This document shows, piece by piece, positions 13,817-46,739 of a stretch of 64,000 bases of DNA (position 1 is the first letter of the stretch; each line of letters opens with the position of its first letter). The translations under genes were made by a program, and so were the position numbers. The notes beneath the pieces are model-generated. The model was not told where the DNA came from. It ran no database searches and worked only from the letters and a program-made list of their open reading frames with translations. This DNA comes from an uncultured Planctomycetia bacterium (GTDB taxonomy: Bacteria > Omnitrophota > Gorgyraeia > CAYWPX01), in contig CAYWPX010000001.1 in NCBI GenBank assembly GCA_964460615.1, positions 49,826 to 113,825 on the forward strand. The letters are read 5' to 3'.

Positions 13817-15223
13817 ATGAAAATACTTCTTATATATCCAAATTGCGAAGGTTATGGCAGGATACCTATAGGCCTCTCATTGATATCCGCAAGTCTAAAA
13901 AAGGCAGGGCATGAGGTCAGGCTTTTTGACCTGACGTTCAAGGTAAGCCGCAATATTGATAATGAAGAGCGTGAGGCGATCGGTACTGCCAAAAAAGTTG
14001 ATACGCTTTCTTATTGGGGAGAGGTTACAAATTCTGATATACATCAGGAATTAAAAGAGCTTATAGGTGAATATAACCCTCGCCTTGTGGGCATTACTCT
14101 TATTCAGAATAATTACTGGACAAGTGTAGACCTATTAAAAACTATCCGCAGCGTCAGTGACGCGCATATTGTAGCAGGCGGAGTATTTTCGACGGTTTCC
14201 CCCCAGATACTCCTAATGGATAACCTTGTTGATAGTGTTATTATGGGAGAGGGCGAGATAGCTTCTGTGGAGCTGGCCAAGAGGATCGAAGCGCATAAGG
14301 ATTATAGAGACGTCAGTAACCTTGCATACCTTAAGGACGGTAAAGTTATCCGCAATCCGATACTTGGCTATGTAAAGCTGGATGATATCCCGTTCCAGGA
14401 CCTCAGCATCTTTGACGAGAGACATTTTATGAAGCCTTTTGACGGCAGAATGGTGAGGGCGGGTTACGTTGAGCTTACAAGGGGATGCCCCTTTAGCTGC
14501 ACATACTGTGTAAATTATTTTCTTAATGAAGAACTTTATTCACACGAGACAAAGCATATAAGGTTCAGGGATCCTGAGAATTCAATCAATGAGATAAGGG
14601 AATTAAAAAGTAAGTATAATTTTAATTTCATATTTTTTACCGATGAAAATATTCTGGTGCTTCCCTATAAGGAACTCAAAAAATATGCCGAGCTTTGGAA
14701 TAAATATATCAAGCTTCCTTTCTATGTGACAACAAGGGTTGAAGTAGCTACTGAAGATAAAGTGAGCCTTTTAAGGGATATGGGCTGCGCGACAGTTGCT
14801 TTTGGGATAGAATGCGGAAATGAAAAATACCGAAGAGAGATGCTTACAAGGCTTACCACAAACGCCCAGATAATAAAGGCTTTTAAGCTATGCAAAAAAT
14901 ATGGCATTAGGACCACCGCAAATAATATGTTCGGCTTCCCTTATGAGACCGAAGATCTGATATTCGACACTATAAAATTAAATATAGACGCTGATCCCGA
15001 CAGTTATTCACTCAGCATATTCGCTCCTTATATAGGTACAAAGCTCCACGAGATCTGCCTTAAAGAGGGTTACATAGAGCCCGGGATACCGCGTAAGATC
15101 TCCATGATAGATGAAAGCATATTGACTATGCCTCAGCTTAGTAAGGATAGGATCCGCGAGCTTTACGCTAATTTTGTAAAATACGTTTCAAAAGAGATCG
15201 CTATTCCAAAAGAGTATCAGTAG
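13817..15223 (+). CDS. cobalamin(B12)-binding-domain radical SAM protein, class B, paralog 1
   Basis: N-terminal Rossmann-like B12-binding domain (KILLIYPN...IGLSLISASL), then GCPFSCTYC as CxxxCxxC. 468 aa. Confidence 0.8.
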   Translation: MKILLIYPNCEGYGRIPIGLSLISASLKKAGHEVRLFDLTFKVSRNIDNEEREAIGTAKKVDTLSYWGEVTNSDIHQELKELIGEYNPRLVGITLIQNNYWTSVDLLKTIRSVSDAHIVAGGVFSTVSPQILLMDNLVDSVIMGEGEIASVELAKRIEAHKDYRDVSNLAYLKDGKVIRNPILGYVKLDDIPFQDLSIFDERHFMKPFDGRMVRAGYVELTRGCPFSCTYCVNYFLNEELYSHETKHIRFRDPENSINEIRELKSKYNFNFIFFTDENILVLPYKELKKYAELWNKYIKLPFYVTTRVEVATEDKVSLLRDMGCATVAFGIECGNEKYRREMLTRLTTNAQIIKAFKLCKKYGIRTTANNMFGFPYETEDLIFDTIKLNIDADPDSYSLSIFAPYIGTKLHEICLKEGYIEPGIPRKISMIDESILTMPQLSKDRIRELYANFVKYVSKEIAIPKEYQ

Positions 15224-15259
15224 AAATAGATAATCATTAAAGAAGAGGGGAAGATAAAA

Positions 15260-16786
15260 GTGCAAAAAGTGAATAAAAATTCAAATAAAGATTTTAAAGT
15301 GTTGTTCATCTATTATAACCCGCGCAAAATGTCCTTGGTCCCGCCTTCTATCGCGCTTTTTTCAAGCTTATTAAAATCAATAGATGTAAAAGTGGATCTA
15401 TTTGATACAACACTTTACGAAAAACAGGATAATCTTGATTCTGACGCTATTGAAGAGAAAAATCTTACCGTAAAACCTTTTTCCGAGAGCCTAAATGTCA
15501 CTAAAAAGGTTAATTATCGAAGTGCCGATATAGCTGGCGACCTGGATAGCCTGATAAAAAGCTTTAAGCCGGATCTATTAGCGGTAACAGCAGTGGAAAG
15601 TACGTTTGAAGGGAGTATTGCGCTTTTAAAAAAGATCCGTCATCATAAGATCCCTACAATTATCGGAGGGGTTTTTGCAACATTTGCCCCGGAGATCGTA
15701 ATATCATATCCTGAAATCGATATGTTATGCATCGGAGAAGGTGAGAAGGCGATCATAGAGTTAGTTCTAAAGATGCGCGAAGGCAAGGATTATTCGGATG
15801 TAACCAATCTGTGGGTAAAAAAGCAAGACGGCTCAGTTATTAAAAATCCTATAGCGAGGTTAGTTAGTCTGGACGAAAACCCCCTCCCTGATATGTCGAT
15901 TTTTGAGGACTCAAGGTTTTATAGGGCGATGGGCGGCAAGATTTATAAGATGTTCGCTGTGGAGACGCATAGAGGATGCATATTTAGCTGCGGATTCTGC
16001 AATTCGCCTTTACAGAATAGGTTCTACAAGGAAAATACAAATCAGATATATTTTCGCCACAAATCCATCGAGAAGGTCAAAGAAGAGATCGACTATTATG
16101 TAAAATTAGGCGCCGAGTATATTTTTTTATGGGCGGACAATTTTTTTGCATATCCTGACAAGTTGATTGATGAATTCTGTGAAATGTATAAAGAGTATAA
16201 GCTGCCTTTTTATTGCCAGTCTCACCCTGAGAATCTTAAAAAAGAGAGGATCCTGAAGCTTAAGGAGATCGGGATGCAGCGTATCGGCATAGGTATTGAG
16301 CATGGCAATGAGGATTTCAGGAAAAGGGTAGTCAATAGAAACTACACCAATGCTATGCTTATAGAGCGTCTTAAGATGCTTACGGACCTTGGTGTTGAAT
16401 ATAGCGTAAATAATATAATAGGATTTCCTGAAGAGACGCCGGAACTTGTCATGGACACTATTGAGCTTAATCGCCAGCATACGGCAAGTGACATAAGCTG
16501 TTCGATATTTACCCCTTTTCACGGGACACCTTTAAGAAAACTGGCGCTTGAAAGAGGTTATTTGAAAGATCCGGAGCTCATTGCGCCGTCAAATGCCGAT
16601 TCGTCGGTTCTTGTAATGCCTGATTTCAGTCAGGATGAGATATTAGGTAAACAGCGTACATTTATTTTTTATATCAAATTTCCGAAGGATCGCTGGGGCG
16701 AGATCAGTAAAGCAGAAAAATTGACTCCCGAAGGTGACAGGATATGGGCGAGACTCAGAGAAGAGTTCGTAAAGACGTATCTATAA
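15260..16786 (+). CDS. cobalamin-binding radical SAM protein, class B, paralog 2 (GTG start)
   Basis: VLFIYYNPRK...SIALFSSLL B12-domain, then GCIFSCGFC. 508 aa. A GAGGGGA RBS precedes the GTG start. Confidence 0.8.
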   Translation: MQKVNKNSNKDFKVLFIYYNPRKMSLVPPSIALFSSLLKSIDVKVDLFDTTLYEKQDNLDSDAIEEKNLTVKPFSESLNVTKKVNYRSADIAGDLDSLIKSFKPDLLAVTAVESTFEGSIALLKKIRHHKIPTIIGGVFATFAPEIVISYPEIDMLCIGEGEKAIIELVLKMREGKDYSDVTNLWVKKQDGSVIKNPIARLVSLDENPLPDMSIFEDSRFYRAMGGKIYKMFAVETHRGCIFSCGFCNSPLQNRFYKENTNQIYFRHKSIEKVKEEIDYYVKLGAEYIFLWADNFFAYPDKLIDEFCEMYKEYKLPFYCQSHPENLKKERILKLKEIGMQRIGIGIEHGNEDFRKRVVNRNYTNAMLIERLKMLTDLGVEYSVNNIIGFPEETPELVMDTIELNRQHTASDISCSIFTPFHGTPLRKLALERGYLKDPELIAPSNADSSVLVMPDFSQDEILGKQRTFIFYIKFPKDRWGEISKAEKLTPEGDRIWARLREEFVKTYL

Positions 16787-16806
16787 TAGAAGAAATTAAC
16801 GGCTAA

Positions 16807-18618
16807 ATGAATCTAATTTTCCTTGAAGAGATTGAGCAGATCGATAGTGTAGCCGGATTACTTAAAGCTGGTTACAGGGCCGTTGCCTTTACGCCGAAAG
16901 TTGTGCATGAGCTGGAAAAAAAAGGGATCGCTTACCTTCGGCCGGAGGATTACTATGATAATGACGCTTTGCAAAGAGAATGGACAGGTTATTATGATCT
17001 ATCCTGGAAGATCATCCGTTCTTTAGACGACGAGCTATTAAGTAAAACTGATGATTTTGATCTGTCGAAACTGAAGATAAGGCCTTTGGAAGCAAATGCA
17101 CAGATGTTTTTTAATATGTTTCGCCAGATCGTTATCAATATCTATATCCTAGAAAAGATCTTTGAAAAGGAATCGCCAAAAAAAGTTATTTACCCGGAAG
17201 AGATCCCCGATAAGTTGACATACAGGCTATATTTTGAAGATGAGTCGGTGGTTTCTTATCTTGTTCCTATCTTTGCCAAGATAAAAGGTTTTGAGGAAGG
17301 ATCCTTCAGTTGGCAAAAAACAGTTGTTTTGCCGGGGATCAAAAGAAGCGAACTCCCGTCTATTAGAAAATTTATCAGGGAGTCTTTATTAAGAGTAGCG
17401 GGCCATTTTAAGCATAACCCTAATAAGAGATCCATATTGGTTTTTCATAATGGGTATGATTTGAATTATATAATACCGCTGCTTTTAAAAAAGGGCCATA
17501 AGGTCATTGATTTTGAGGCATTTTTAAAGAATACTAAGAAGGTATCTGAAAGAGCATATTATCATCTCGTCTTTTCCAAGGATAATAATTATGAAAGTCT
17601 TTTTGAATACAGATCGGTCAACTTTTTCCCACTTGTTAAAACAAGGCTTGCTTTTTATCTGGACAATGTTCTGCCGGGGTATATCTCTTTAAAGCATGAT
17701 CTGGAAAAATTATTAAAAAGATCAGATATTCTTATCGGAGGGCATAGCCCGTCAAGGGTATACGAGAATATCCTTTGCGCTTTGGCAAAAGACAGGGGTA
17801 TTAAGGTCGTTTCATTCCAGCACGGTGGGTACGGGGAGAGATTTAACCATATTCTTCATGTGAATGACTTTGATAATCCTTTGTGTGATTATTTTCTATC
17901 CTGGGGAGAAGGTGTAAAGAGGTATGCAGTAAAATACAACCTTAACCGGATAAAGATCATACCGGTCGGCTCCGCCTGGCTTGACAGCCTTGCGATAAAA
18001 AACCATCATGAGGGATCGGCTGATGATAGCATTAAAACTATTCTTTATATACCTACATCTTTGAGAGTAAAGCCGAGATCCAGGATGCTTCCCGGCGAGT
18101 ATTCGGATAATACCTATTATGATCTTCAGAAAAAAATTATTTCGTCGGTTGCTAAAGATCCTAATGTCAAATTGTTAGTTAAGCTTCACCCGGGGGATGA
18201 GGCGGTTAATCCAATAATAGATTTTATAAAAGAGGCAAATCTTAATAACTGTTCGATCGTGTATGGAGAGCTTTCGAGGTGGTTTGAGGGTTCGGACCTT
18301 GTTATTTCGGATTTTATGTCGACGACCCTATTAGTGGCTTTGAGCATGAAAAAGAACGTATTTTTTTATATAGATAGTACGGCAATGCTTCTTGAAAGAG
18401 ACGCCCGGGCGATGATCGACAAAGCTGCTTATACCTTTACAAGTATCAATGATTTTTTGGGATCGATATCCGATTATGTAGATTCACCCGGCAAATTTCC
18501 CAGAAAGACCGGTGATGAGTTCATAATTAATTACGGTACATATATGAATGACGGACAAAGCGGAAAAAGGGCGGTTGAGGCGATCGAAAAAATATTTCCG
18601 GGGGCCAGTTTAAACTGA
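16807..18618 (+). CDS. hypothetical protein, possibly a GT-B-like transferase (TagF or capsule-biosynthesis-like C-terminal half); candidate nonulosonate transferase
   Basis: 603 aa and soluble. Only weak resemblance in the C-terminal region (GGHSPSRVYENILCA...VSFQHGGYGE; DLVISDFMSTTL). The assignment comes mainly from position after the CMP-sugar genes. Confidence 0.3.
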   Translation: MNLIFLEEIEQIDSVAGLLKAGYRAVAFTPKVVHELEKKGIAYLRPEDYYDNDALQREWTGYYDLSWKIIRSLDDELLSKTDDFDLSKLKIRPLEANAQMFFNMFRQIVINIYILEKIFEKESPKKVIYPEEIPDKLTYRLYFEDESVVSYLVPIFAKIKGFEEGSFSWQKTVVLPGIKRSELPSIRKFIRESLLRVAGHFKHNPNKRSILVFHNGYDLNYIIPLLLKKGHKVIDFEAFLKNTKKVSERAYYHLVFSKDNNYESLFEYRSVNFFPLVKTRLAFYLDNVLPGYISLKHDLEKLLKRSDILIGGHSPSRVYENILCALAKDRGIKVVSFQHGGYGERFNHILHVNDFDNPLCDYFLSWGEGVKRYAVKYNLNRIKIIPVGSAWLDSLAIKNHHEGSADDSIKTILYIPTSLRVKPRSRMLPGEYSDNTYYDLQKKIISSVAKDPNVKLLVKLHPGDEAVNPIIDFIKEANLNNCSIVYGELSRWFEGSDLVISDFMSTTLLVALSMKKNVFFYIDSTAMLLERDARAMIDKAAYTFTSINDFLGSISDYVDSPGKFPRKTGDEFIINYGTYMNDGQSGKRAVEAIEKIFPGASLN

Positions 18619-20177
18619 TGCAACTAAAAAAGGTTGATTCTGTAAGAAAGAGGTACCTCGTCACGCTCTTTAGCAACGTAGTCTTATTCATGGCGAGCAT
18701 TGTAACTGCCGGTATTGTCCCTAGGGCGCTGGGGCCTAAAGAGCTAGGGGATTTCGGTTTTTTAAACCGCGTTTCCAGTTCATTCAGAAATATGCTTGAT
18801 ATGGGTACGTCAAGCGCTTTTTTTAACCTCAATTCCAAAGAGGAAAAGACAGGTTCTTTAGTAAAAGCTTACTCGCTCTGGTTTTTGTTCCAGTTAGTAT
18901 TGATAATAAGCCTTATTATCTTGGCATTCTTGATAGGGATAAAGGATCTTATCTGGCCGGGCCAGGAGCTAAAATACATAGTCTGGGTAGCCGTTTTTGA
19001 CTGGGTATTTTTCTCGGCAAGCTTATTAAGACAGCTCGGCGACAGCAAAGGCCATACGACAAATGCGCAGTTAATAAATCTGGTTATAAGTATCTTAAAT
19101 ATTGTTGTTTTAGTTTTTTTTGCGCTTAAAGGATTTTTAAATATAGGCTTTTACATAGCCATCCAGATATTCAGTTCTGCGCTTATTTCGTTATTTATCA
19201 TGTTATTTGTAATAGCCCCCCACAGGGATATTTACTGGGATGGTAAAATCACCGATCACTTAAAAGGGACGATCAAATACTTCAAAGAATTCTGTTCGCC
19301 GCTAGTTATGATAATGATCGTGAGTTTTATTTTTGAGTATTTTGACAGGATGTTCTTGCAGAGGTTCGGCGGGTCGGTAGAGCAGGGGTATTTTCATATT
19401 GCCTCGAGTTGGGCGACATTTTCAACGCTCTTCACAGCATCGTTCCTTTCGATATATAAAAGGGAGGTTGCTTATTCTTTAGGCGGTAATGATAAGCTAA
19501 GGGCATCCGAGATCTTTAGCAAGTACATTAAGATGCTTTACTTTATCACATTGACATTGGCGGTTTTATTGGCTTTTAACGCTAAAGAGTTATTGGAGCT
19601 TATTGCCGGGCCTAAATTCACTCCGGCTACTATGGTCTTATTTTTGATGGCTTTTTATCCTATTCACCAGGTCTATGGGCAGCTTGGCGGGGCGACATTC
19701 TATTCGACTGAAAGGACAAAGGCTCTTAGGAATATTCAGATTGTCGGGATGCTTCTTGGGATAGGGTTAACATATCTATTTTTAGCCCCCTCAACATTAT
19801 TAATACCGGGGCTTGGAATGGGTTCAGTGGGGTTGGCTTTTAAAACAGTTTTATTGAATATTATTATAGTTCAGGTGTATTTAGTTTCTAATTGCAGGTA
19901 TTTTAAAATAAGCCCTAAGCCATTTTGGGTCCATCAGATATATACGGTTTTGATTTTATTTGTTCTGATGGTGGTTTTAAAATGGGCGGTATTCTTTTTT
20001 ATCGGCGGAGTTTCACCTTTGGTTATTTTTGGAAAGCTTGCGCTTTTGGCATTTTTGTATTTTGTTCTTATATTTATTATGATCTATTTTTTCCCGCATA
20101 TTGCGGGTTTGAAAAAGGAAGAGATTGATTTCGTGCTTGATAAGATAAAGGCGGTCTTAAGGTTTAAAAAGGCCTAA
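18618..20177 (+). CDS. polysaccharide-biosynthesis/MOP-superfamily membrane protein (Wzx-like flippase)
   Basis: 519 aa, about 14 hydrophobic segments, with a charged N-terminus followed by repeated TM helices typical of Wzx/MATE-like exporters. Confidence 0.55.
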   Translation: MQLKKVDSVRKRYLVTLFSNVVLFMASIVTAGIVPRALGPKELGDFGFLNRVSSSFRNMLDMGTSSAFFNLNSKEEKTGSLVKAYSLWFLFQLVLIISLIILAFLIGIKDLIWPGQELKYIVWVAVFDWVFFSASLLRQLGDSKGHTTNAQLINLVISILNIVVLVFFALKGFLNIGFYIAIQIFSSALISLFIMLFVIAPHRDIYWDGKITDHLKGTIKYFKEFCSPLVMIMIVSFIFEYFDRMFLQRFGGSVEQGYFHIASSWATFSTLFTASFLSIYKREVAYSLGGNDKLRASEIFSKYIKMLYFITLTLAVLLAFNAKELLELIAGPKFTPATMVLFLMAFYPIHQVYGQLGGATFYSTERTKALRNIQIVGMLLGIGLTYLFLAPSTLLIPGLGMGSVGLAFKTVLLNIIIVQVYLVSNCRYFKISPKPFWVHQIYTVLILFVLMVVLKWAVFFFIGGVSPLVIFGKLALLAFLYFVLIFIMIYFFPHIAGLKKEEIDFVLDKIKAVLRFKKA

Positions 20178-20188
20178 AAGGAAAACAA

Positions 20189-21805
20189 ATGAATAAATCT
20201 GCTAAACTAAGGGAGTTATTTAGAAAAGGTAATATCGTAAAGGTCATGGGTTCGCACGATGCGCTTGGCGCAAAATTGGCGGAAAATAGCGGGTTTGACG
20301 CTGTATGGGCAAGCGGCCTTGAGATATCCACGAGCCACGGCGTTCCTGATGCCAATATCCTTACAATGACCGATTTTCTTGACGCGGCAATTTCGATGAA
20401 TGAGGCAGTATCCGTACCGGTGGTTGCCGATTGCGATACTGGTTTCGGAAATTCCAATAATGTAATACACATGGTAAAAAAATATGAAGCGGCGGGCATT
20501 GCGGCTGTCTGCATAGAAGATAAACATTTCCCTAAAGTAAATAGTTTTATTCCGGGCAGGCAGGAGCTTGCGCCTATATCGGAATTCGTAGGAAAGATCT
20601 TGGCCGCCAAGAATGCCCAGTCTACCAAGGATTTTATGGTAATAGCGCGGGTCGAAGCGCTTATAGCCGGCTGGGGAATGGAAGAAGCTCTTAAAAGAGC
20701 CAATGCCTATAGAGATGCCGGAGCCGATGCTATCCTTATACACAGTAAGGCAAAGGACCTTAAAGAGATAAAAGAATTTATTTCTAAATGGAAAAACCGG
20801 TTGCCTTTAGTTGTTGTCCCGACCACATATTATAAAGTCAGCGCTAAAGAGCTTGAATCGATCGGTATAAAGATGGTTATATATGCCAACCAGGGTATGC
20901 GTGCATCAATTAAGGCTATGAGCGATACATATTCCGAGATTATAAGATCCGGCTCGACTGCTTCTATTGAAGATAGTATTGCATCGATGAAAGAGGTTTT
21001 TGAACTCCAGGGAATGACCAAGATGAAGGAGAACGAACTTATTTATTCCGATACTGATACCGATAAAGTTACAGCAATAATTCCTTCCGCCGGAGACCAT
21101 CTTGAAGAATATTCTATGAAGGAGATCTCTAAGGATATACCTATTTCTATGATAGATATAAACGGTAAGCCGCTTCTCCAGAGGCAGCTTGAAGTATTGA
21201 ACCGCTCTAAGGTATATGATGTAAGGGTTGTTGCCGGATACAAGAAAGATAAGATCAACGTTGAGGGAGTAAAGATAGTTTCCAATGACCTCTACAAAAA
21301 AACAGGGATACTTTTTTCTATCATGAAGGCACTTGAAGAAGTGAATTCAAAGGTTTTTATCAGTTATGGCGATGTCATTTTTGACCACATTATTTTTAAC
21401 CGATTATCCGAAAGTCCCAAGGATATAACAATATTAGTAGATAAAACATATGAGGACAAAAATTACGGCCCGGAAAAAAAGATCGATTTTGCCAATGTAA
21501 AAGCCAACCATCCGGGCTCCCAGAGAGTTCTCAACTCTCATTCTATAAAGGTTGTTACAAAGATAAGCCGCAGCGGCGCTGCCTATGAATTCCCGGGTTT
21601 GACATTCCTTTCTTCCAAAGGAGTAAGCATAATAAAAGAGATTTATAAAAAGAATAAACATAGGCTTCTCAGTAGCGGGCTGGGGGATATACTAAATCTT
21701 GCCATAAAAAATGGTTATGAGGTCTCTGCGATAGAGGCTAATTCGGGTTGGATGGAGATACATTCTCTTGAAGATTATAAACTGGCGTGCAAATTAGTGA
21801 GATAA
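20189..21805 (+). CDS. pepM: phosphoenolpyruvate phosphomutase fused to a C-terminal nucleotidyltransferase (Fom1/PntC-like PepM-cytidylyltransferase)
   Basis: N-terminal VMGSHDALGAKLAE..GFDAVWASGLEISTSHGVPDAN and EDKHFPKVNSFIPGRQ match PEP mutase. The C-terminal about 250 aa (AIIPSAGDHLE...INGKPLLQRQLEVL) is a nucleotidyltransferase fold. Confidence 0.85.
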   Translation: MNKSAKLRELFRKGNIVKVMGSHDALGAKLAENSGFDAVWASGLEISTSHGVPDANILTMTDFLDAAISMNEAVSVPVVADCDTGFGNSNNVIHMVKKYEAAGIAAVCIEDKHFPKVNSFIPGRQELAPISEFVGKILAAKNAQSTKDFMVIARVEALIAGWGMEEALKRANAYRDAGADAILIHSKAKDLKEIKEFISKWKNRLPLVVVPTTYYKVSAKELESIGIKMVIYANQGMRASIKAMSDTYSEIIRSGSTASIEDSIASMKEVFELQGMTKMKENELIYSDTDTDKVTAIIPSAGDHLEEYSMKEISKDIPISMIDINGKPLLQRQLEVLNRSKVYDVRVVAGYKKDKINVEGVKIVSNDLYKKTGILFSIMKALEEVNSKVFISYGDVIFDHIIFNRLSESPKDITILVDKTYEDKNYGPEKKIDFANVKANHPGSQRVLNSHSIKVVTKISRSGAAYEFPGLTFLSSKGVSIIKEIYKKNKHRLLSSGLGDILNLAIKNGYEVSAIEANSGWMEIHSLEDYKLACKLVR

Positions 21806-22299
21806 ATATTATGATAGACACAAAATTATTTTTAAAAAAACTTAAAAAAACAGGTTATACTTTTTTTGCAGGCGTGCCCTGTTCCATATTAAAGAATCTC
21901 CTTAAAGAGATTGAGAATGATCCGGAAATTTCATATATCCCAGCTGTGCGCGAAAACGCAGCGCTTGGGGTAGCAAGCGGAGCATATCTAACCGGCAAGA
22001 AACCTTGCGTACTTATGCAGAATTCCGGCCTGGGTAATATTGTGAACGCTATAACATCTTTTAATCATATTTATAAGATCCCGTCGCTAGTGATTATGAC
22101 CTGGAGAGGGTTTGAGGGCAAGGATGCGCCGGAACATATTATCATGGGTAAAATCATGACTGAATTATTGGACGAACTTAAGATGCCTTATAAGGTAATA
22201 GGTGAAAACTTTGATATGGATATAGAGTGGGCGGATGGAATCATCAGTAAGACTTCATTGCCTGCAGTATTGATACTTAAGGATGGGCTATTAAAATGA
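21787..22299 (+). CDS. phosphonopyruvate decarboxylase, alpha (N-terminal TPP-enzyme) subunit
   Basis: 170 aa, FFAGVPCSILKNL. It lies immediately downstream of pepM and is coupled to the beta subunit (ATGA overlap). Confidence 0.75.
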   Translation: MQISEINIMIDTKLFLKKLKKTGYTFFAGVPCSILKNLLKEIENDPEISYIPAVRENAALGVASGAYLTGKKPCVLMQNSGLGNIVNAITSFNHIYKIPSLVIMTWRGFEGKDAPEHIIMGKIMTELLDELKMPYKVIGENFDMDIEWADGIISKTSLPAVLILKDGLLK

Positions 22300-38023: not shown

Positions 38024-38026
38024 TTA

Positions 38027-39469: not shown

Positions 39470-40238
39470 AAAAAACAGTATTTTCGGTTTAAAGCTTTTG
39501 AATGCCTTTAAAAACTCCGGCATTGAGGTGTCGTCTGTTGTTGTCATTGAGCCCTCCATTAAGGAGGGTGTCAGGCTTTTTAATTCTGTCAGAAAAAGAA
39601 TAGGCTTTCTGGATACATTTATATATACGCTTCAGATCATTTTTACCGATCTATTAAAAGTTCTCAAACTATTTATCCTGAAAGATCTGGTTTTTGATTA
39701 CAAAAAACTGGCTTTAAATGTTATTTGCGTCAAAAACCTTCATTCAAGAGAATCTCTCGAAAGGATCCGGAATGCAGGGCCGGACATTATAATATTAGGG
39801 CAGAGCGGTATAGTAAAAAAGGAAATTTTAGATATAGCTAAAATCGGAGTATTGAATGCTCATCCGGGAATTGTGCCTCAATATAGAGGTATAGACTCTT
39901 TTCAGTGGGCCGCATATTATAATGACTTCGAAAGGATCGGGATAAGCGTTCATTGGGTTAATAAGGGCGTTGATAGCGGCAATGTTATAACCGTTATTAA
40001 GTATAAGTTCACGGGTAAAGAAAAATTCTCAAATTTTGAAGAGACGCTCTATAAAATATGTATTGATGAGTTAGTAGAAGTCACAAAAAGGCTCAGATTT
40101 AAAGTTGAACCTGGTAAAGAGCAGAATTTGTCCGAAGGCGCTCAGTATTATAAGATACCCCGCAAATCATTAAAGATCGCCAAGGCAAATTTTAAGAATT
40201 TTATCGGTGAGATGAAGCCGGATAAAGGACAAGATTAA
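39447..40238 (+). CDS. formyltransferase-domain protein (sugar N-formyltransferase, ArnA N-domain/Fmt-like)
   Basis: ILGQSGIVKKEIL...GVLNAHPGIVPQYRGIDSFQWAAY matches the formyl_trans_N catalytic motif (N..H...P..RG). 263 aa. Confidence 0.7.
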   Translation: MKLLIITKKNSIFGLKLLNAFKNSGIEVSSVVVIEPSIKEGVRLFNSVRKRIGFLDTFIYTLQIIFTDLLKVLKLFILKDLVFDYKKLALNVICVKNLHSRESLERIRNAGPDIIILGQSGIVKKEILDIAKIGVLNAHPGIVPQYRGIDSFQWAAYYNDFERIGISVHWVNKGVDSGNVITVIKYKFTGKEKFSNFEETLYKICIDELVEVTKRLRFKVEPGKEQNLSEGAQYYKIPRKSLKIAKANFKNFIGEMKPDKGQD

Positions 40239-40244
40239 TATTAT

Positions 40245-41774
40245 ATGGCGCCGAAAAATATATTATCTGAAAGGTTATTCACAAAAATTATGTTTCTGCT
40301 GCTTTTAGCGGCCGGATTCTTTTTTAGGGCACAAAATCTGGGAAGGGCGCTTACCGGCGATGAATCTTTGTTGTTTGAAATATCCAATCTCCCTTTAAAG
40401 GATATTGTGCCAATGCTTTTGCAGATCGAGGCCTATCCGCCATTAAGTTATTTTTTGCTGCATTTTTGGATGTTTTTCAGTAAGAGCCTGATATGGGGCA
40501 AATTGTATTTTGTTTTGTTTGGTATGGGCAACTGTATCCTGGTCTATCTTATCGTTAAGGAATATATTGATGAAAAAGCCGGGAGACTTGCTTTGATCCT
40601 GTCAATATTTTCGCCGCTTTTAGTTTTCAGCTCACAATTCTTCAGAAGTTATGCTGATTATACCTTCTGGATGCTGTTATCATGCCTTTTTTTACTGAAA
40701 ATCATTAAAGGAAAAGCGGGGTCAGTGATATATCTTGGTTATATTATCTCGGTTTTATTGGGGCTATATACATTTTACTGGACTGCCGGGCCCATTTTTC
40801 TAGCCCAAATTATCCTGTTAGTATTTTCAGGTGAAATAAAAAAGGATATCCGTAAATTTCTGGTTTCAATTTCTGCTGTAATAATCGGTTTTTTGCCGTG
40901 GTTATTGCTTATCCCCGAACAATTGGGGAATGCCTCGATGACATTTTTTGACTGGTCGGCAAAAGGATTTAATGTCGGCGGGCTGAAGATAGGGCTTTTT
41001 ACCAGGAATATTTTTTCTTTACTCGGTTTTGACCCATATTTTTTTGTTTATCAGGGGGGCGTAACCAGGTTTTTTAATAAATGGGTGCTTTTGTTTTTCA
41101 TAGCAGTTTTTGCGCTTCTTTTTATTTTTCTTATTTTAAAGGTTTACCATAATCTAAAAGGGATGTTCAAAAACAAAGCTTTAGTGTTTTTCCCGTTCGT
41201 TATTGTTTTTATTCCTCTACTTATCTTTTGGTCAGCTATCTACATTTTTAATACTTTACCTAACGCTAAGTATTTTTCATTTTTTCATGCGATGTTTTTA
41301 ATATTCTATGTCATTATCATTAACATGCTTTGGAGAAAAAACAGGGTAATTGGAATTATAACCACTTTTATTATTATAATAATTTTCACAGCAAGAATCC
41401 CTGTTGCCGTATCTTCAGAAATGGATTCAAAAGGCGCCTCAAAGTATCTTGCGGATAATATGAAAAAAGGCGAGGTCGTGATCTATTTTAAATCATTTGT
41501 GGATAATGAGGATGATTTTACTTTTATTTCTCTGAATGATTACATTGTTTTTGATAAGGTTAGATCAGAATATATCTTTAAGAACGAACAAAGCATTGAA
41601 GACCTGGGCGGATTATTTGCAGCTAATAATAGTATCTGGTTCTTTAAGGCTTTTGGGAACAATGATATTTTTAAAGCGAATGAGCGTATAGATGGTCTGC
41701 TTAAAAAGAGGGGCTTTAAAGTAAACGTTGTAAAAGCTTTTAGGAACATAGAAGTCATCAAATATGAAAAATAA
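40245..41774 (+). CDS. GT-C fold membrane glycosyltransferase (ArnT/PMT, GT39/GT83-like)
   Basis: 509 aa, at least 10 TM segments. A GDESLLFE acidic motif sits in the first extracytoplasmic loop. It follows the ArnC-like gene. Confidence 0.6.
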   Translation: MAPKNILSERLFTKIMFLLLLAAGFFFRAQNLGRALTGDESLLFEISNLPLKDIVPMLLQIEAYPPLSYFLLHFWMFFSKSLIWGKLYFVLFGMGNCILVYLIVKEYIDEKAGRLALILSIFSPLLVFSSQFFRSYADYTFWMLLSCLFLLKIIKGKAGSVIYLGYIISVLLGLYTFYWTAGPIFLAQIILLVFSGEIKKDIRKFLVSISAVIIGFLPWLLLIPEQLGNASMTFFDWSAKGFNVGGLKIGLFTRNIFSLLGFDPYFFVYQGGVTRFFNKWVLLFFIAVFALLFIFLILKVYHNLKGMFKNKALVFFPFVIVFIPLLIFWSAIYIFNTLPNAKYFSFFHAMFLIFYVIIINMLWRKNRVIGIITTFIIIIIFTARIPVAVSSEMDSKGASKYLADNMKKGEVVIYFKSFVDNEDDFTFISLNDYIVFDKVRSEYIFKNEQSIEDLGGLFAANNSIWFFKAFGNNDIFKANERIDGLLKKRGFKVNVVKAFRNIEVIKYEK

Positions 41775-43035
41775 GATCAGTATCAAACAAATTATAATTT
41801 TAACGGTCTTTTTAGTGTTCTCTGCCGTTATTTTGAGTGTCTTTGTTTATGAAAGGGCTTCATCTAAGAACCTTTTTGTAAATTATTCCAAAAGGATCGC
41901 TGCCGAATCGGGGGCTTTTTTATCCGGGATCATTTTTGATGACAGTGATTTCAATAATTTTAGTTTCGGCCCCGATAAAGGGCAAGACAGCGATTATGAA
42001 AAGTTGCCTTTAAAGGCTTATCTTGATAGAGTTTTTGAAAATAAGGTTTTTGAGTATTCTGAAAAGAATAATTTTTTGCTTTCAGATTATGCCGGAAAAT
42101 TCCAGTATGAAAATCCGGAAAACGTGAAACTTGTCGAGTTGAGAGATAATTTCAAGCTTAAGGAACTCGTTAGACACCAAAAAGACGGGTTTGGAAGCAT
42201 AATAAAACTCGCTTATTGGGTAAAGCAAGAGATTAAAAGAGGTACTCCTAAGGATGTGGATTTTAATTTCAATGCCCTGGATATACTCAGAAGGGCCAAA
42301 AACGGGGAGAAATTCTTTTGCAGCGAATATGCGACCGTTTTTTTACAGTGTGCTTTAAGCCTTGGCTATCAGGCAAGATATGTCGGGCTATTAAAGGGGC
42401 ATGTTGTGAACGAAGCCTGGAGCGATACGCATGCCAAGTGGTTTGTAGTTGATGTTGATAATGGTATTTATTATATGAAGGATGGTTTACCGTTGGATGC
42501 CCTCGAGCTTCACGAAGCTTTTGAGAGTAAAGATCTTGATGATATCGGAATTTACGTCACATCCGATGGTGCTAAAAAATTGCACATCGACCTTCTTGAT
42601 CTGCTGTCATATTATCATGAGTTCTATATCAGGATGAGAAATGACTGGTTTTCCAATAGGTTCCCGCACTGGCACCACAGGTCCAATTCAATAATGAATA
42701 GCCTAGAGTGGAAGGATAGGTATACCCGGGATAATATCCTTATATCGAAGAATACTTCAAATAAGGATGAGCTCTATTTTCCTATCAATGTAGTTAACCT
42801 CAATGCTGATATCAAGGGTTCTAATGGCAGCAATATCAGGCTTATTCTTGATACATTTACTCCCGGTTTTTCTTATTTTTCTTTATTGATAGATGGCAAA
42901 AAAACTGATATCATTAAAGATTCAGTTTATATGTTTAATGTGCATCCCGGAGAAAATTTGCTTGAGATCTCAAGCGTAAATGCCTTGGGAGTAATGGGCC
43001 CCAGGCTTAAAGTAAGATTTTCACTTGTGGAATAG
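41764..43035 (+). CDS. membrane-anchored transglutaminase-like (TGc) cysteine-protease-fold protein
   Basis: N-terminal TM. KFFCSEYATVFLQCALSLGYQARYVG ... HVVNEAWSDTHAKWFVVD matches the Cys-His-Asp TGc core pattern. 423 aa. Confidence 0.5.
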   Translation: MKNKISIKQIIILTVFLVFSAVILSVFVYERASSKNLFVNYSKRIAAESGAFLSGIIFDDSDFNNFSFGPDKGQDSDYEKLPLKAYLDRVFENKVFEYSEKNNFLLSDYAGKFQYENPENVKLVELRDNFKLKELVRHQKDGFGSIIKLAYWVKQEIKRGTPKDVDFNFNALDILRRAKNGEKFFCSEYATVFLQCALSLGYQARYVGLLKGHVVNEAWSDTHAKWFVVDVDNGIYYMKDGLPLDALELHEAFESKDLDDIGIYVTSDGAKKLHIDLLDLLSYYHEFYIRMRNDWFSNRFPHWHHRSNSIMNSLEWKDRYTRDNILISKNTSNKDELYFPINVVNLNADIKGSNGSNIRLILDTFTPGFSYFSLLIDGKKTDIIKDSVYMFNVHPGENLLEISSVNALGVMGPRLKVRFSLVE

Positions 43036-43038
43036 GAT

Positions 43039-43920
43039 ATGAAAAAGATAATAACAAGATTGCTTGTTTTAGCGCTCATACTTTTTTTTACCTGTGAGAT
43101 AGGGCTAAGGATAAGGCTCGCGTATCTATACAAAAACCCGGATTGGTTATTATATCATCAGTTTAAGCTGAGGACCGCCGAAGAGATAAATACCAGCGAC
43201 CTGCCTCACTATTACATAGGCAATATGTTTAAGCCGTTTAATCTGGTATTTAGAAGTGCGAGCCCAAAGAGCCCCAAAGAGATAATCACTATTGAGAGCT
43301 CTGCTCTCAGGTCAATAAGGCGTCAAATGCAGATCTTATTGGAAAATAATCCTGATCTTAAGTGGATAGATTATTCTCCGGATAAAGATAAGAATATCGA
43401 TTTTACCAATAACAACATAGTCCTGTACGAATTTCTGGTTTACCCTGACATCTATAACACCCTTAAGAGGGAGTCGAGGATCCTAAAAAAGATCTTTGGC
43501 GCCACAATGGATGATTTTTTATATCATAACTTTGCTTTCTATATGCATATAGACGAAAATATCAATTTTACATCTATGAATTCCGATAAAGTACTGGAGG
43601 ATTATCTGAAACTTCTGGTGTCCAGGGAAGAGCCCTTCTGTAAAAGCATAAATGAATTTGGATATAACAATGTTTTTTACGTCATTACCCCTAACGGTTT
43701 TGACCCGAATTCTCCGGGCGGAAAGATATACCTGAAATATATCAATAGCGCGTATAAAGAGATGCTTAAGCTTCTGGATAAATATAAAGTCCCATGCATT
43801 GATCTTATGAATGAAAAGGTTGAGAAGTCTGATTTTAACGATTTCTTTCATTTTTCTAAAGTTGGAGGAAGGAAGATGTCAGAGCTTATTATTGAGTATC
43901 TTTCTAAGAGAGGGTATTAA
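43039..43920 (+). CDS. hypothetical membrane-anchored protein, possibly the extracytoplasmic partner (AlgJ/AlgX/DltD-like) of the MBOAT acyltransferase
   Basis: N-terminal signal anchor, 293 aa, no motif recognised. The assignment is purely positional, since its stop overlaps the MBOAT start. Confidence 0.25.
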   Translation: MKKIITRLLVLALILFFTCEIGLRIRLAYLYKNPDWLLYHQFKLRTAEEINTSDLPHYYIGNMFKPFNLVFRSASPKSPKEIITIESSALRSIRRQMQILLENNPDLKWIDYSPDKDKNIDFTNNNIVLYEFLVYPDIYNTLKRESRILKKIFGATMDDFLYHNFAFYMHIDENINFTSMNSDKVLEDYLKLLVSREEPFCKSINEFGYNNVFYVITPNGFDPNSPGGKIYLKYINSAYKEMLKLLDKYKVPCIDLMNEKVEKSDFNDFFHFSKVGGRKMSELIIEYLSKRGY

Positions 43921-45314
43921 TGCTTTTTAATTCATTTGAGTTTGCTGTTTTTTTTATAATTGTGCTTGTAGGAGCATTTATACTACAGGAGATCAATCTC
44001 TACAGGAAGCTCTTCCTTATTGTGGCTAGCTTTATTTTTTATATGCATTGGAAAGTGGATTACGGTTGGCTATTGGCAGGGTCCATACTTTTTAATTTTT
44101 ATATTGCCAAGCTTATCGGAGAAGCTTCGGTCCAAAAAAGGAGGAAGATCCTGATAGTCTTTGCGGTTTTTGGCAATCTGCTTTTATTATCCGTATATAA
44201 GTACACGAATTTTTTTATCGGAAATATAAATTTCTTTTTTAATTTAGCGCACCTAAAAAATATTAAGGCGGTTGATATAGTCCTTCCGATAGGGATATCT
44301 TTTTTTACTTTTCAGGCCATATCTTACATAGTCGACGTATACAAAAATAAGATTAAGCCGGCCTCTTTGACCGATACGGCTCTTTATATATCTTTTTTCC
44401 CGCATCTTATCGCAGGTCCTATAATAAGGGCTATTCAGATAATACCGCAATTTGCCGAAACCAAGGCCATTAGGCATGATAACCTTATTACAGGGACCCA
44501 CAGGATCTTCTGGGGGCTTATAAAGAAGATGGTCATAGCCGATAATCTCGCAGTCTTTGTTAATCAGGCATTTGCAGGGCACAGTGAATATAACTGGCTT
44601 ACTCTTTTATTGGGGGTTTATGCGTTTGCTTTTCAGATCTACTGCGATTTCTCCGGATACAGCGATATAGCTATTGGGTGTTTCAGGATACTCGGTTACA
44701 ATATCCTGGAAAATTTTAATCTTCCATATATGGCTAAGGATTTTTCCGATTTCTGGAAAAGGTGGCATATATCATTATCCAGCTGGCTTAGGGATTATCT
44801 CTATATACCGCTTGGAGGGAATAGGCTTGGCAATAATAGGACGCTCATAAATCTTATGATAACAATGTTTTTGGGCGGTCTTTGGCATGGAGCCAGGTGG
44901 ACTTTTGTTATCTGGGGTCTTTTGCACGGTATCTATCTAGTAATCCAGAAACTTCTTGAGGGGAGAATAAAACTGCCCGATAACCCCTTAATGACTTCTA
45001 TAAGGATGTTCGTTACATTCCAGCTTGTATGTCTTGCCTGGATTTTCTTTAGGGCCGAGAGTTTCTCTTCTGCGATGTCAATACTTTCGTCAATACTTAC
45101 TCTTAAAGAAGGGGTACAATTTATCCCTGCCGATGCGCTAATTTTACTGGCGCTGTCATTCGGTTTTCATTTTGCAAAATACCGAATGCCTTTATATGAA
45201 AAGTTCCTTTCTATGCCGTACTATATAAGGTATTTTGCTTATTCAGTAGGTTTTTTTCTTTTATTTTTCAATAAAGCGAGCCTCTCAAGTCAGTTTATAT
45301 ATTTTCAATTTTAA
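43920..45314 (+). CDS. MBOAT-family membrane O-acyltransferase (AlgI/DltB-like)
   Basis: 464 aa. [25 protein letters not shown] and the conserved His in [10 protein letters not shown] are diagnostic MBOAT motifs. Confidence 0.85.
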   Translation: [464 protein letters not shown]

Positions 45315-45332
45315 AAAGGAGAACATTATTAG

Positions 45333-46739
45333 ATGCATATACTTTTAATTTCGCCTCCAAAGGATAATATCGTCACAACGACTCTCCCCGAAAAGATCAA
45401 TAAAGAGCGCGGGTATAATCCGCCGCTCGGGTTGTTGTATCTGGCTTCTTATATAAATAAAAATTCAAGTCACAAGGTGAGCGTTATAGATTCCGAGGTA
45501 GAAGAGCTCACTTATCCCATGCTTAAAGAGCGCATCGAGTCAGCTAAACCTGACCTGGTAGGGATCCAGGTCCTTACATTTACCCTTATAGACAGCCTTA
45601 AGGTAGCCGAATTAGTTAAGGAGATATCCAAAGATATCCCTGTAGTTTTCGGCGGCCCGCATGTAACGGTATTCCCGCGGGAAAGTATAAGTTATGATGA
45701 TGTTGACTATATTGTCAGAGGTGAGGGCGAATATTCTTTTAAAAGCCTGATCGATAATCTCAGTGATCCTAAAGCGCTTTTAAATATTAAAGGGATCGGT
45801 TTTAAAGAGAATGGAAATGTTACCATAACTGAGGAGCCTGATTTTATAGAGGATCTCAATAGCCTTCCGATCCCGGACAGGACCCTTACGCCTTATGGGA
45901 AATATTATTCGCTTATTTCCAAAAATTTCCCGATCACTACCATAATGACGAGCCGCGGATGCCCCTATAACTGTATTTTCTGCGAAAGGATGGGAAAGAA
46001 ATTCAGGGCCAAGTCCCCCGAGAAAGTGCTTGAGGAGATTGAGGATTGCCTGAGGCTTGGTATAAAAGAGATATTTTTTCATGACGATACATTTACGATA
46101 GACAAGAAGAGGGTTTACGCTATATGCGACCTTATTGAAAAGAGAAAACTTGAGTTTGAATGGGACGCCAGAGCAAGGGTTGATACTATTGATTATGATC
46201 TTTTGGCAAGAATGAGGAAGGCGGGCCTCAAAAGGATCAGTTTCGGCGTTGAATCCGGCAACCCCAGGATCCTTAAAAACTTAAGAAAAGGCATTACTAT
46301 CGAGCAGGTTGAGAAGGCATTCAGTTATGCCAGAAGTCTTAAGATAGTGACCCTTGCTGATTTTATGATAGGGTCACCCGGAGAGACAAGAGAGGATATA
46401 AATGAGACGATCAGTTTTGCAAAAAAGATCAAAGCCGATTATGTTCAGTTTTCGGTGACAACGCCGTATCCCGGGACAGATCTATATAAGGAGGCTTTAG
46501 TAAGAGGGATAATAAGCAATGATGTTTGGAAAGAATTTGCCGAGCAGCCCAAAGCTGATTTTAAACCGCCCTTATGGACTGAAAATTTTAAAAGAGAGGA
46601 GCTTATTGAGCTTCTTAACTTTTGTTATAAAAAATTCTATATATCATGGGACTTTTTACTTAAGGAAATGTTTAGTATCAGGTCTTTCAGAGAACTGGGG
46701 AATAAATTTAAGGCAGGATTGAAATTAATGAAAAGATAA
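45333..46739 (+). CDS. cobalamin-binding radical SAM protein, class B, paralog 5
   Basis: HILLISPP...PPLGLLYLASYI B12-domain, then GCPYNCIFC. 468 aa. Confidence 0.8.
   Translation: MHILLISPPKDNIVTTTLPEKINKERGYNPPLGLLYLASYINKNSSHKVSVIDSEVEELTYPMLKERIESAKPDLVGIQVLTFTLIDSLKVAELVKEISKDIPVVFGGPHVTVFPRESISYDDVDYIVRGEGEYSFKSLIDNLSDPKALLNIKGIGFKENGNVTITEEPDFIEDLNSLPIPDRTLTPYGKYYSLISKNFPITTIMTSRGCPYNCIFCERMGKKFRAKSPEKVLEEIEDCLRLGIKEIFFHDDTFTIDKKRVYAICDLIEKRKLEFEWDARARVDTIDYDLLARMRKAGLKRISFGVESGNPRILKNLRKGITIEQVEKAFSYARSLKIVTLADFMIGSPGETREDINETISFAKKIKADYVQFSVTTPYPGTDLYKEALVRGIISNDVWKEFAEQPKADFKPPLWTENFKREELIELLNFCYKKFYISWDFLLKEMFSIRSFRELGNKFKAGLKLMKR

Follow-up and report, generated by a model that had tools for sequence, protein, structure and literature searches.

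Why should one surface-glycan locus encode five class B radical S-adenosylmethionine (SAM) enzymes? The locus lies on contig CAYWPX010000001.1 from an uncultured bacterium of the Omnitrophota, and was analysed over a window of 64 kb, one continuous run of ~57 open reading frames (ORFs), all on the + strand, with ~39% G+C. The original prediction, made from the sequence alone, described five ORFs in which a cobalamin (B12)-binding domain precedes a radical SAM core. All five are present, on the + strand and 468–508 residues long: rSAM1 (13817-15223), rSAM2 (15260-16786), rSAM3 (22861-24327), rSAM4 (28985-30481) and rSAM5 (45333-46739). We consider it probable that these are five distinct class B enzymes, each of which arrived in the cassette for its own activated building block of a single surface-glycan locus, with C-methylation as their likely tailoring chemistry.

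All five exceed the Pfam gathering scores for both domains, at 41.1–80.4 bits for PF02310 (B12-binding; gathering score 32.1) and 84–102 bits for PF04055 (Radical_SAM; 29.5). The paired values are 50.5 and 85.4 bits for rSAM1 (468 residues), 41.1 and 92.8 bits for rSAM2 (508 residues), 66.9 and 84.2 bits for rSAM3 (488 residues), 80.4 and 89.5 bits for rSAM4 (498 residues) and 77.4 and 101.9 bits for rSAM5 (468 residues). In a five-way alignment the sequence RGC-x3-C-x2-C is invariant, its cysteines being C224, C228 and C231 in rSAM1 numbering, and so is GEGE, a motif of the N-terminal domain. The class B architecture is thus confirmed, as predicted, for each of the five; cobalamin use we infer only, from these sequence features.

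The description of the five as paralogues holds in a distant sense. Pairwise identity among them is just 26–34%, with rSAM1 and rSAM2 at 34%, and there has been no local expansion of paralogues. Orthologues in other organisms are much closer, at 55–73% identity to the window enzymes; the closest relatives reach 73% for rSAM3, 73% for rSAM1 and 71% for rSAM5. The closest named relative of rSAM1, in a Candidatus Omnitrophota metagenome-assembled genome (MAG), is 69% identical, and a scan of GTDB gave no relative of rSAM3 above 55% identity. Sequence records place rSAM1, rSAM2, rSAM4, rSAM5 and the WecA-like protein of the window together on a single NCBI contig, and Logan assemblies of SRR12487046 contain rSAM1, rSAM2 and rSAM5. 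Recent tandem duplication and decay to pseudogenes are both ruled out, since all five genes are full length and have closer orthologues elsewhere than in the window. In a neighbour-joining tree of 143 B12-radical SAM sequences, drawn from the window and from loci retrieved for comparison (numbered with the prefix L below) and serving as a proxy for a phylogeny with characterised enzymes, the five are spread over four regions, rSAM1 and rSAM2 being the only pair to share one; the rSAM4 clade is sister to the rSAM3 clade. By these sequence comparisons the five appear to be anciently diverged, separately conserved subfamilies.

Conserved cassettes and their proposed building blocks

The genes of the rSAM pathways are closely coupled, with spacings that range from gaps of 1 nt to overlaps of 22 nt. 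rSAM3 lies within a 2-aminoethylphosphonate (AEP) module, beginning 1 nt past one AEP pathway gene and ending 1 nt ahead of another. The module starts with a phosphoenolpyruvate (PEP) mutase–nucleotidyltransferase fusion of the PntC type (20189-21805), which passes the cutoff of TIGR02320 (338.3 bits against 319.55) and matches PF12804 at 38 bits. Next comes a phosphonopyruvate decarboxylase (Ppd) in two parts, alpha (21787-22299) and beta (22296-22859), which match TIGR03297 over positions 2-153 (128 bits) and 173-357 (174 bits) and together span positions 2-357 of this family, for which the single-chain cutoff is 312.5. After the beta gene come rSAM3 and an AEP aminotransferase (24329-25393; TIGR03301 PhnW-AepZ, 330.7 bits, just below the cutoff of 360.8). 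These are followed by a second nucleotidyltransferase (25390-26097; PF12804), a CDP-alcohol phosphotransferase (26090-26926; PF01066), a Zn-ribbon class I methyltransferase (26919-28007; PF08241; 2xCxxC ribbon CVYC..CNNC) and a 335-residue protein resembling APH and choline kinases (27991-28998). The second nucleotidyltransferase resembles the cytidylyltransferase half of inositol-1-phosphate cytidylyltransferase/CDP-inositol transferase (72 bits) and matches the Sden_1164 family weakly (42 bits).

Contigs from other samples (L001, L002 and L003) carry an equivalent gene set in near-identical order, and in L001 and L003 the order from the PEP mutase (PepM)–nucleotidyltransferase fusion through Ppd, radical SAM enzyme, AEP aminotransferase and nucleotidyltransferase to CDP-alcohol phosphotransferase is retained. 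In L001 (10951-13116) the methyltransferase and the kinase-like protein are halves of a single 721-residue chain, to which the window methyltransferase is 43% identical; the window kinase-like protein is colinear with its kinase-like half (E = 1e-5). The split Ppd is ComD/ComE-like, its two ORFs overlapping; the same split occurs in L003, and a single chain is found in L001 and in Streptomyces. The kinase-like protein, which is APH/EcKL-like, keeps GDFDFDN and LDWED motifs and has Gln at the position of the catalytic-loop His.

The association of rSAM3 with phosphonate genes extends well beyond these contigs. PepM, Ppd or AEP aminotransferase genes lie within 10 kb of rSAM3-clade genes in 9 of 12 independent loci, compared with 1 of 157 others (Fisher p = 9e-12). 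The clade includes true Streptomyces members of the Sden_1168 family (1086 bits), whose genes stand 3' of PepM, Ppd and AEP aminotransferase and precede a nucleotidyltransferase-like Sden_1164 gene; the adjoining PepM, Ppd and AEP transaminase genes that mark the Sden_1168 context are thus found around rSAM3 as well. Gene fusions are also observed among rSAM3 homologues, joining a nucleotidyltransferase to a B12-radical SAM enzyme (P0090 and P0118) or a B12-radical SAM enzyme to a class V aminotransferase (P0116). A further homologue of 797 residues (P0083) carries PF14890 intein-splicing and PF13392 HNH domains, pointing to an intein within a B12-radical SAM enzyme.

SD1168 has been proposed as a C- or P-methylase with no known physiological substrate, and Fom3 methylates cytidylyl-2-hydroxyethylphosphonate at C2 (PMC9204698). 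By analogy, the simplest reading of rSAM3 is a Fom3-like C-methylation of cytidylylated AEP. The enzyme would act on nucleotide-activated AEP, C-methylated AEP would be the likeliest product, and the CDP-alcohol phosphotransferase would hand this product on. P-methylation by rSAM3 is unlikely, since the product of the module is a phosphonate, AEP, rather than a P-H phosphinate. Two other loci carry class B genes that directly adjoin PepM–Ppd, of the rSAM2 type in L092 (1616-5562) and of the rSAM1 type in L006 (9968-16602). Phosphonate pathways have therefore drawn on more than one class B subfamily.

rSAM1 and rSAM2 belong to a cassette that resembles those for CMP-activated ulosonic acids. 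It begins with a short NeuB-family PEP-condensing synthase that has no SAF domain (10229-11125; PF03102, 262 bits; NeuB 255 bits, cutoff 400; PseI 210 bits, cutoff 340) and a DegT/PseC-like sugar aminotransferase (11130-12326; PF01041, 313 bits; PseC 224 bits, cutoff 423). Between the aminotransferase and a PseF/KdsB-like cytidylyltransferase (13155-13814; PF02348, 85 bits; PseF 127 bits, cutoff 206) lies a sixth radical SAM gene that was missing from the original prediction. It is of the SPASM type (12328-13125; 265 residues; PF04055, 35.6 bits; PF13186, 43.6 bits) and could encode a sugar epimerase or a dehydrogenase-type enzyme. rSAM1 begins 2 nt past the cytidylyltransferase stop codon. 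rSAM2 follows, and directly 3' of it are an LIC12162/BFO_1060-like protein (16807-18618; TIGR04331, 50 bits; NF046086 BFO_1060, 46 bits; both below cutoff), a candidate ulosonic-acid transferase, and a Wzx-like flippase (18618-20177; PF01943, 47.5 bits). Genetic evidence has established transferases for pseudaminic and legionaminic acid in Tannerella forsythia, and BFO_1060 is homologous to them (PMC5420450).

This cassette is conserved with rSAM1. Orthologues that are 58% and 43% identical are found in cassettes with a short NeuB, a CTP_transf_3 cytidylyltransferase, an aminotransferase, a HAD phosphatase and a SPASM radical SAM enzyme. The first of these loci (L086, 58%) has four B12-radical SAM genes in 20 kb and an LIC12162-family transferase; the others (L087 and L088, 43%) have HAD, cytidylyltransferase, DegT, B12-radical SAM, SPASM radical SAM and NeuB genes in that order. 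The best orthologue of rSAM2 (433 bits, in L030) adjoins a large putative glycosyltransferase (GT) and an orthologue of rSAM4. The context of rSAM2 thus varies, and its substrate is the least certain of the five.

As in the described routes to pseudaminic (Pse) and legionaminic (Leg) acids that end with Tannerella-type transferases (BFO_1060/Tanf_01245), the cassette encodes a NeuB-family synthase, PseC-like and PseF-like enzymes and a BFO_1060/LIC12162-like protein. In contrast to those routes, its synthase has no SAF domain, and it includes one SPASM and two B12-radical SAM genes, which are absent from the described Pse, Leg and neuraminic acid (Neu) pathways. Synthase, aminotransferase and cytidylyltransferase all score below the equivalog cutoffs for the Pse, Leg and Neu families, implying that the cassette specifies a CMP-ulosonic acid route akin to these, as yet undescribed, in which radical SAM enzymes do the tailoring. 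We propose that rSAM1, probably together with rSAM2 and the SPASM enzyme, would tailor a CMP-activated amino-ulosonic (nonulosonate-like) acid, which the LIC12162/BFO_1060-like transferase would then add to the glycan. Just 5' of the synthase gene the locus has its one intergenic gap of any size, and in it lies a 119-residue ORF (9843-10202) that by eye has the look of a winged-helix regulator of the MarR type; L087 likewise has a MarR gene.

rSAM4 overlaps the genes on both sides of it, the kinase-like gene 5' and a DegT aminotransferase gene 3'. The latter (30460-31587; PF01041, 377 bits) is PseC/ArnB-like, with scores for PseC (324 bits) and ArnB (310 bits) below cutoff, and is followed by a family 2 glycosyltransferase (GT2; 31589-32530; PF00535, 117 bits). 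The phosphonate module lies 2-9 kb 5' of rSAM4, and the closest rSAM4 orthologue (639 bits), in a Dehalococcoidales MAG (L030), has no such module within 10 kb. There the orthologue is followed by DegT, NDP-sugar pyrophosphorylase, 4,6-dehydratase and GT2 genes, a gene set that matches the classic route to an NDP-4-amino-4,6-dideoxyhexose. Relatives of rSAM4 also stand a few genes 3' of rSAM3 orthologues in L001, L003 and L005, and L004 has an rSAM4-like gene, from outside the rSAM4 clade, 3' of its rSAM3 orthologue. rSAM4 would thus be predicted to tailor an NDP-amino(deoxy)sugar made with its partner aminotransferase.

rSAM5 is preceded by a membrane O-acyltransferase of the MBOAT family (43920-45314; PF03062, 101 bits; DltB-like, with a DltB score of 187 bits, below cutoff). 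It is followed by a GT2 of the polyprenyl-phosphate-sugar synthase type (46820-47725; best matches AglJ, PgfS, Dol-P-hexose transferase and ArnC, all below cutoff), a Zn-ribbon methyltransferase (47725-48627; PF13489; 2xCxxC ribbon CNIC..CTLC) and two GT-C (PMT_2) transferases (48641-50335 and 50332-51756; PF13231). From its gene content this block looks like a side-branch system of the Gtr/Arn type. rSAM5 and the class I methyltransferase would modify a polyprenyl-phosphate-linked sugar, and the GT-C enzymes would attach the modified sugar outside the membrane.

The trio of GT2, radical SAM and methyltransferase genes is conserved in L089, whose rSAM5 orthologue has 71% identity, and in a patescibacterial locus, L090 (50%); the adjacency of MBOAT and rSAM5 genes is also seen in L089. 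The synteny with L089, which comes from a different sample (Logan ERR7850083), is extensive: window positions 37229-55924 correspond to L089 positions 1-21404, through GT2, PMT_2, transglutaminase-like, MBOAT, rSAM5, GT2, GT-C, two family 4 glycosyltransferase (GT4) and AsnB-like genes, with an extra B12-radical SAM gene and a nitroreductase gene inserted in L089. The rSAM5 family has more than 5000 homologues, and members with at least 50% identity are spread across Woesearchaeota, Patescibacteria, Omnitrophica, Chloroflexota and Desulfobacterales, the candidate phyla radiation (CPR) and DPANN included. An Arn-like gene set within the syntenic stretch (37229-41774), comprising an ArnC-like GT2, a DUF7033 protein, a formyltransferase and a GT-C (PMT_2) transferase, suggests a lipid-linked N-formyl amino sugar as a side branch. 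The ArnB-like DegT enzyme at 30460 may feed this set.

Recurrence in uncultured lineages

Is the window a singular case? Two samples of other loci bear on this question. The first comprises 90 loci, each of at most 21.5 kb and fetched around one B12-radical SAM gene, so that its frequencies are conditional and not genome-wide. Full-length B12-radical SAM genes number at least two in 42 of these loci, at least three in 20 and at least four in 10; a single locus, from an Elusimicrobiaceae MAG (L082, 21 kb), has five. The second sample, of 87 metagenome loci on shorter contigs, came from a scan with an rSAM1 profile and unspecific patterns; the relatives in it are at most 35% identical, and it is not an orthologue set. 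Sixteen of the 87 loci have at least two B12-radical SAM genes, and one (L164, a JGI metagenome locus of 13.8 kb) has five. In the window itself a span of 21.4 kb holds four and one of 33 kb all five, and both L082 and L164 are denser.

In most multi-copy loci there are also genes for glycosyltransferases, sugar nucleotides, methyltransferases or flippases. The hosts are mostly uncultured, and include Omnitrophota, Planctomycetota, Elusimicrobiota, Patescibacteria, Nanoarchaeota, Woesearchaeota and Bathyarchaeia. Five such genes among ~57 is far above any plausible genome-wide density, and the same clustering is seen in unrelated genomes. The co-occurrence of three or more B12-radical SAM genes in glycan loci, for which the original prediction proposed a search, is thus observed in 20 of 90 loci, most of them with glycosyltransferase or sugar genes. 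The claim that the arrangement has not been described stands in so far as we found no paper describing it; by the same count, however, the window is not singular. Full-text literature searches found no paper with B12-radical SAM genes in polysaccharide, O-antigen, nonulosonate or AEP cassettes, and no study of any enzyme from such clusters.

Proposed methyl transfer and other radical chemistry

What, then, do these enzymes do? By the default class B mechanism, a [4Fe-4S] cluster would cleave SAM to give a 5'-deoxyadenosyl radical, this radical would take a hydrogen from an unactivated carbon, and methylcobalamin would supply the methyl group. We infer both the substrates and the methyl transfer from sequence and gene context. 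Methylation is described as the commonest class B reaction (PMC11659888), every functionally characterised class B sequence group includes C-methyltransferases according to a recent review, and SD1168 is reported as a methylase. On these grounds C-methylation is most likely for most of the five.

Several observations weigh against this reading. None of the five reaches the cutoff of any curated NCBIfam family, and no function can therefore be transferred by orthology. The best curated family of rSAM3 and rSAM4 is NF038361 (Sden_1168), at 352.5 and 296.9 bits against a cutoff of 575. rSAM5 scores best with HpnJ (TIGR03471; 237 bits against 577.6) and BchE (TIGR02026; 203 bits against 481.35), and rSAM1 with BchE (132 bits against 481.35); for rSAM2 the best score is ~93 bits and the affinity is not clear. 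The best matches of rSAM1 and rSAM5 are thus with non-methylases: HpnJ, BchE and OxsB do not methylate, HpnJ contracting a glucosamine ring and BchE inserting oxygen (PMC9204698). Reviews add that non-methylases are indistinguishable from alkylating enzymes by sequence or structure. For the phosphonate module, a literature search found no natural C-methylated AEP, and the CDP-alcohol transferase could place the phosphonate on a lipid rather than a glycan. The PepM–Ppd neighbours of the rSAM2-type and rSAM1-type genes of L092 and L006 leave the ulosonate assignment not secure, and some distant relatives of rSAM5 (in L056 and L064) lie outside obvious glycan contexts. A last point, the closeness of the five to AprD4, is taken up below.

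Could the five instead carry out oxygen-independent radical reactions other than methylation on glycan and phosphonate precursors, such as hydroxylation, ring contraction, epimerisation or dehydration? HpnJ or BchE is the first or second curated match for rSAM1, rSAM3, rSAM4 and rSAM5, and a review places non-methylases and methylases in the same large sequence group. The AEP module offers a more specific argument. The AEP core of Burkholderiales consists of seven genes, encoding a Ppm–PntC fusion, Ppd, AEP aminotransferase, an Fe/2-oxoglutarate oxygenase, a second PntC and CDP-alcohol enzymes (PMC8942020), and the window module corresponds to this core except that a B12-radical SAM enzyme fills the oxygenase slot. 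By analogy with BchE, which replaces an aerobic cyclase, rSAM3 could be an anaerobic stand-in for the oxygenase and give 1-hydroxy-AEP; rSAM5 could similarly carry out an HpnJ-like contraction of a sugar ring. The lineages with these loci are mostly anaerobes. On the other side, the BchE and HpnJ scores (132–237 bits) fall far below the cutoffs of 481–578 bits, the family nearest to rSAM3 is the one reported to be a C- or P-methylase (PMC9204698), methylation predominates among class B reactions as noted above, and the presence of the same rSAM3 clade in aerobic Streptomyces weakens the argument for an anaerobic substitute. We judge such non-methylating chemistry unlikely, while giving it real weight.

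The original prediction had held that clustering of the paralogues with non-methylating class B enzymes would count against it. This is in part what we see, with rSAM1 nearest to BchE and rSAM5 nearest to HpnJ, although at scores far below cutoff. Membership of the named families is not supported by the scores. With BchE the five score 82–203 bits, with the PhpK family of P-methyltransferases (TIGR04479) 77–159 bits against 600, and with TIGR04295 (B12_rSAM_oligo) 38–92 bits against 400. rSAM5, for all its affinity with HpnJ, has MBOAT, GT2, methyltransferase and GT-C genes as neighbours and no hopanoid genes. True members of the Sden_1168 family score 1086 bits, far beyond rSAM3 and rSAM4. 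The BchE, HpnJ, PhpK, HpnR, BzaD, TsrM, Mmp10-type and KedN5 families are all excluded, every score being far under the respective cutoff.

A further possibility concerns cobalamin itself. AprD4 is a diol dehydratase that acts on an aminoglycoside sugar and is not known to use cobalamin. Some or all of the five might likewise keep the Rossmann-like domain without using cobalamin, and carry out SAM-only radical reactions on sugars, for instance a dehydration leading to deoxy sugars. AprD4 (6fd2) is the top match in sequence searches of the PDB for four of the five and the second for rSAM2, every solved structure being remote from all five, and the NCBIfam AprD4 family scores 94–136 bits with rSAM3, rSAM4 and rSAM5. 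AprD4 is also the top structural match of an AlphaFold2 model of rSAM3, which was built with 20 homologues (mean predicted local distance difference test, pLDDT, 92.3; predicted template-modelling score, pTM, 0.91). The cobalamin binders MgmA, TsrM, CysS and TokK match this model almost equally well, however: in Foldseek, full-length matches to MgmA, TsrM, CysS, TokK and OxsB have E-values of 1e-15 to 1e-22, and the template-modelling scores (TM) with solved class B enzymes and AprD4 are 0.6–0.7, for a fold tested with rSAM3 only. Moreover, all five sequences exceed the PF02310 threshold, and the AprD4 family scores are far under their 500-bit cutoff and lower than those of cobalamin-dependent families. 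We think cobalamin-free chemistry of this kind very improbable.

Finally, some of the enzymes might act on lipids, be it the head group of a phosphonolipid, the polyprenyl carrier or a lipid of the membrane, or on unrelated substrates, as mobile cassettes collected in a glycan island. The CDP-alcohol phosphotransferases beside AEP genes have been read as phosphonolipid genes (PMC8942020), and lipids are the substrates of many characterised class B enzymes, among them HpnP, HpnR and the ladderane candidates (PMC9204698). An LPG_synthase_TM gene adjoins the rSAM5 homologue in L090, the rSAM5 relatives in L056 and L064 have the non-glycan neighbours already mentioned, and glycan genes are, according to the literature, typical cargo of hypervariable loci in Omnitrophota. 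Set against this are the tight translational coupling of the rSAM genes to sugar-pathway genes, the conservation of the same pairs of rSAM and sugar genes across phyla, and the position of the phosphonate module between a flippase and glycosyltransferases on one strand. This explanation appears to us quite improbable, and we retain C-methylation of activated glycan building blocks as the favoured reading.

The wider locus and known systems

The rest of the window bears out the predicted setting in a glycan and phosphonate locus. Glycosyltransferases, nucleotide-sugar enzymes, two Wzx-like flippases and a WecA-like initiating transferase accompany the PEP-mutase module, and further genes encode three DegT aminotransferases, a WecB-type 2-epimerase, GT2, GT4 and GT-C transferases and an asparagine-synthase-like amidotransferase. 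Five or six class I SAM methyltransferases had been counted in the original prediction; we find five, at 26919, 32523 (fused to a GT4), 36513, 47725 and 57943, and those at 26919 and 47725 have the N-terminal 2xCxxC Zn ribbons that had been noted in two of them. No genes for cobalamin synthesis or import are present within the 64-kb window.

Two gene sets point to sugars made by the locus. At 1051-3846 there are rmlA, rmlB and an rmlD-like reductase gene, and no ORF the size of rmlC is found among ORFs of at least 150 residues, so that the dTDP-6-deoxyhexose of the window may not be L-rhamnose. At 3869-9780 a set resembling WbpA, WbpB, WbpD and WbpE encodes a UDP-sugar dehydrogenase, a GFO oxidoreductase, a hexapeptide acetyltransferase and a DegT aminotransferase. 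Together with the asparagine-synthase-like amidotransferase (54023-55924), this set would be typical of 2,3-diacetamido-uronic acids and their amides. The two flippases (18618-20177 and 56637-57941) imply either that two lipid-linked units are exported or that two glycans are encoded; Pfam scans of the window gave no Wzy, Wzz or ABC-transporter domain.

How do these cassettes compare with systems of known function? The fosfomycin system of Streptomyces (Fom3 with Fom1 and Fom2), compared by gene content and reported reaction, resembles the phosphonate module in that it groups genes for a PEP mutase–cytidylyltransferase fusion, a Ppd and a class B radical SAM enzyme; Fom1 is itself a cytidylyltransferase–PepM fusion. 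In contrast to that system, the window has an AEP transaminase in place of the aldehyde reductase that forms 2-hydroxyethylphosphonate (HEP), and has neither an Fe-dependent alcohol dehydrogenase (Fe-ADH) nor a cupin epoxidase (HppE) among its ORFs. A second nucleotidyltransferase and a CDP-alcohol transferase come on top of this, implying a product that decorates the surface or a lipid and does not serve as an antibiotic. By sequence the link to Fom3 is an indirect one, in that Fom3, HpnJ and SD1168 share the main cluster of a sequence network (PMC9204698). The likeness to Sden_1168 (NF038361) lies in its place as the best curated family of rSAM3 and rSAM4, and in Streptomyces members that share both the clade of rSAM3 and the proximity of PepM, Ppd and AEP aminotransferase; the scores of 352 and 297 bits against 575, and an identity of ~34% with the members, set rSAM3 and rSAM4 apart. 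A literature search gave nothing for the name Sden_1168 or for B12-radical SAM enzymes in combination with AEP.

The clusters for tailoring with AEP phosphonyl groups (Rice 2019; Li and Horsman 2022) share with the window the Ppm–PntC fusion, Ppd, AEP aminotransferase, second PntC and a gene of the CDP-alcohol phosphotransferase type. They hold an Fe/2-oxoglutarate oxygenase, whereas the window holds a B12-radical SAM enzyme, a Zn-ribbon methyltransferase and a kinase-like protein. No AEP core in the published inventory (PMC8942020) is described as having a B12-radical SAM enzyme, and the term 'radical SAM' is absent from the PntC paper. GenK, GenD1, Fms7 and AprD4 are, like the enzymes predicted here, of the class B fold and modify unactivated carbons of amino sugars. 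Their substrates are free pseudo-oligosaccharide antibiotics of actinomycete secondary metabolism, in contrast to the nucleotide- or lipid-linked donors expected in a locus of the Wzx/WecA type, and their sequences are remote. HpnJ and BchE, the best curated matches of rSAM5 and rSAM1, offer a parallel in that HpnJ acts on a glucosamine moiety, and differ in that the scores fall far below cutoff and no hopanoid or bacteriochlorophyll genes are nearby.

The five enzymes are best described as new members of a known superfamily, and their use in surface-glycan and AEP-tailoring pathways as a design that recurs but is uncharacterised, of which the window is a rich example. To our knowledge, class B radical SAM enzymes are known almost wholly from the pathways of antibiotics, cofactors, lipids and peptides. 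By the count of recent reviews there are more than 80,000 sequences in more than 100 groups, and the largest of these groups are unexplored. A broader proposal, which we advance tentatively and hold to be possible rather than probable, is that B12-radical SAM tailoring of CMP-ulosonic acids, CMP-AEP, NDP-amino sugars and polyprenyl-phosphate sugars forms a widespread and unrecognised layer of glycan chemistry in uncultured, mostly anaerobic bacteria and archaea, CPR and DPANN included. It would yield residues not yet described, such as C-methylated AEP and C-alkylated nonulosonates, and the window, with at least four new substrate classes, would be among its richest examples.

For the superfamily, these loci give uncharacterised class B groups readable contexts with candidate substrates, namely CMP-AEP, a CMP-ulosonic acid, an NDP-amino sugar and a polyprenyl-phosphate sugar. 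For phosphonate biology, they predict a new AEP-derived head group and place the orphan SD1168 family in a physiological setting. For the organisms themselves, they suggest that the surface glycans of uncultured lineages would bear modifications installed by cobalamin-dependent radical chemistry, linking the availability of B12 to the phenotype of the cell surface.

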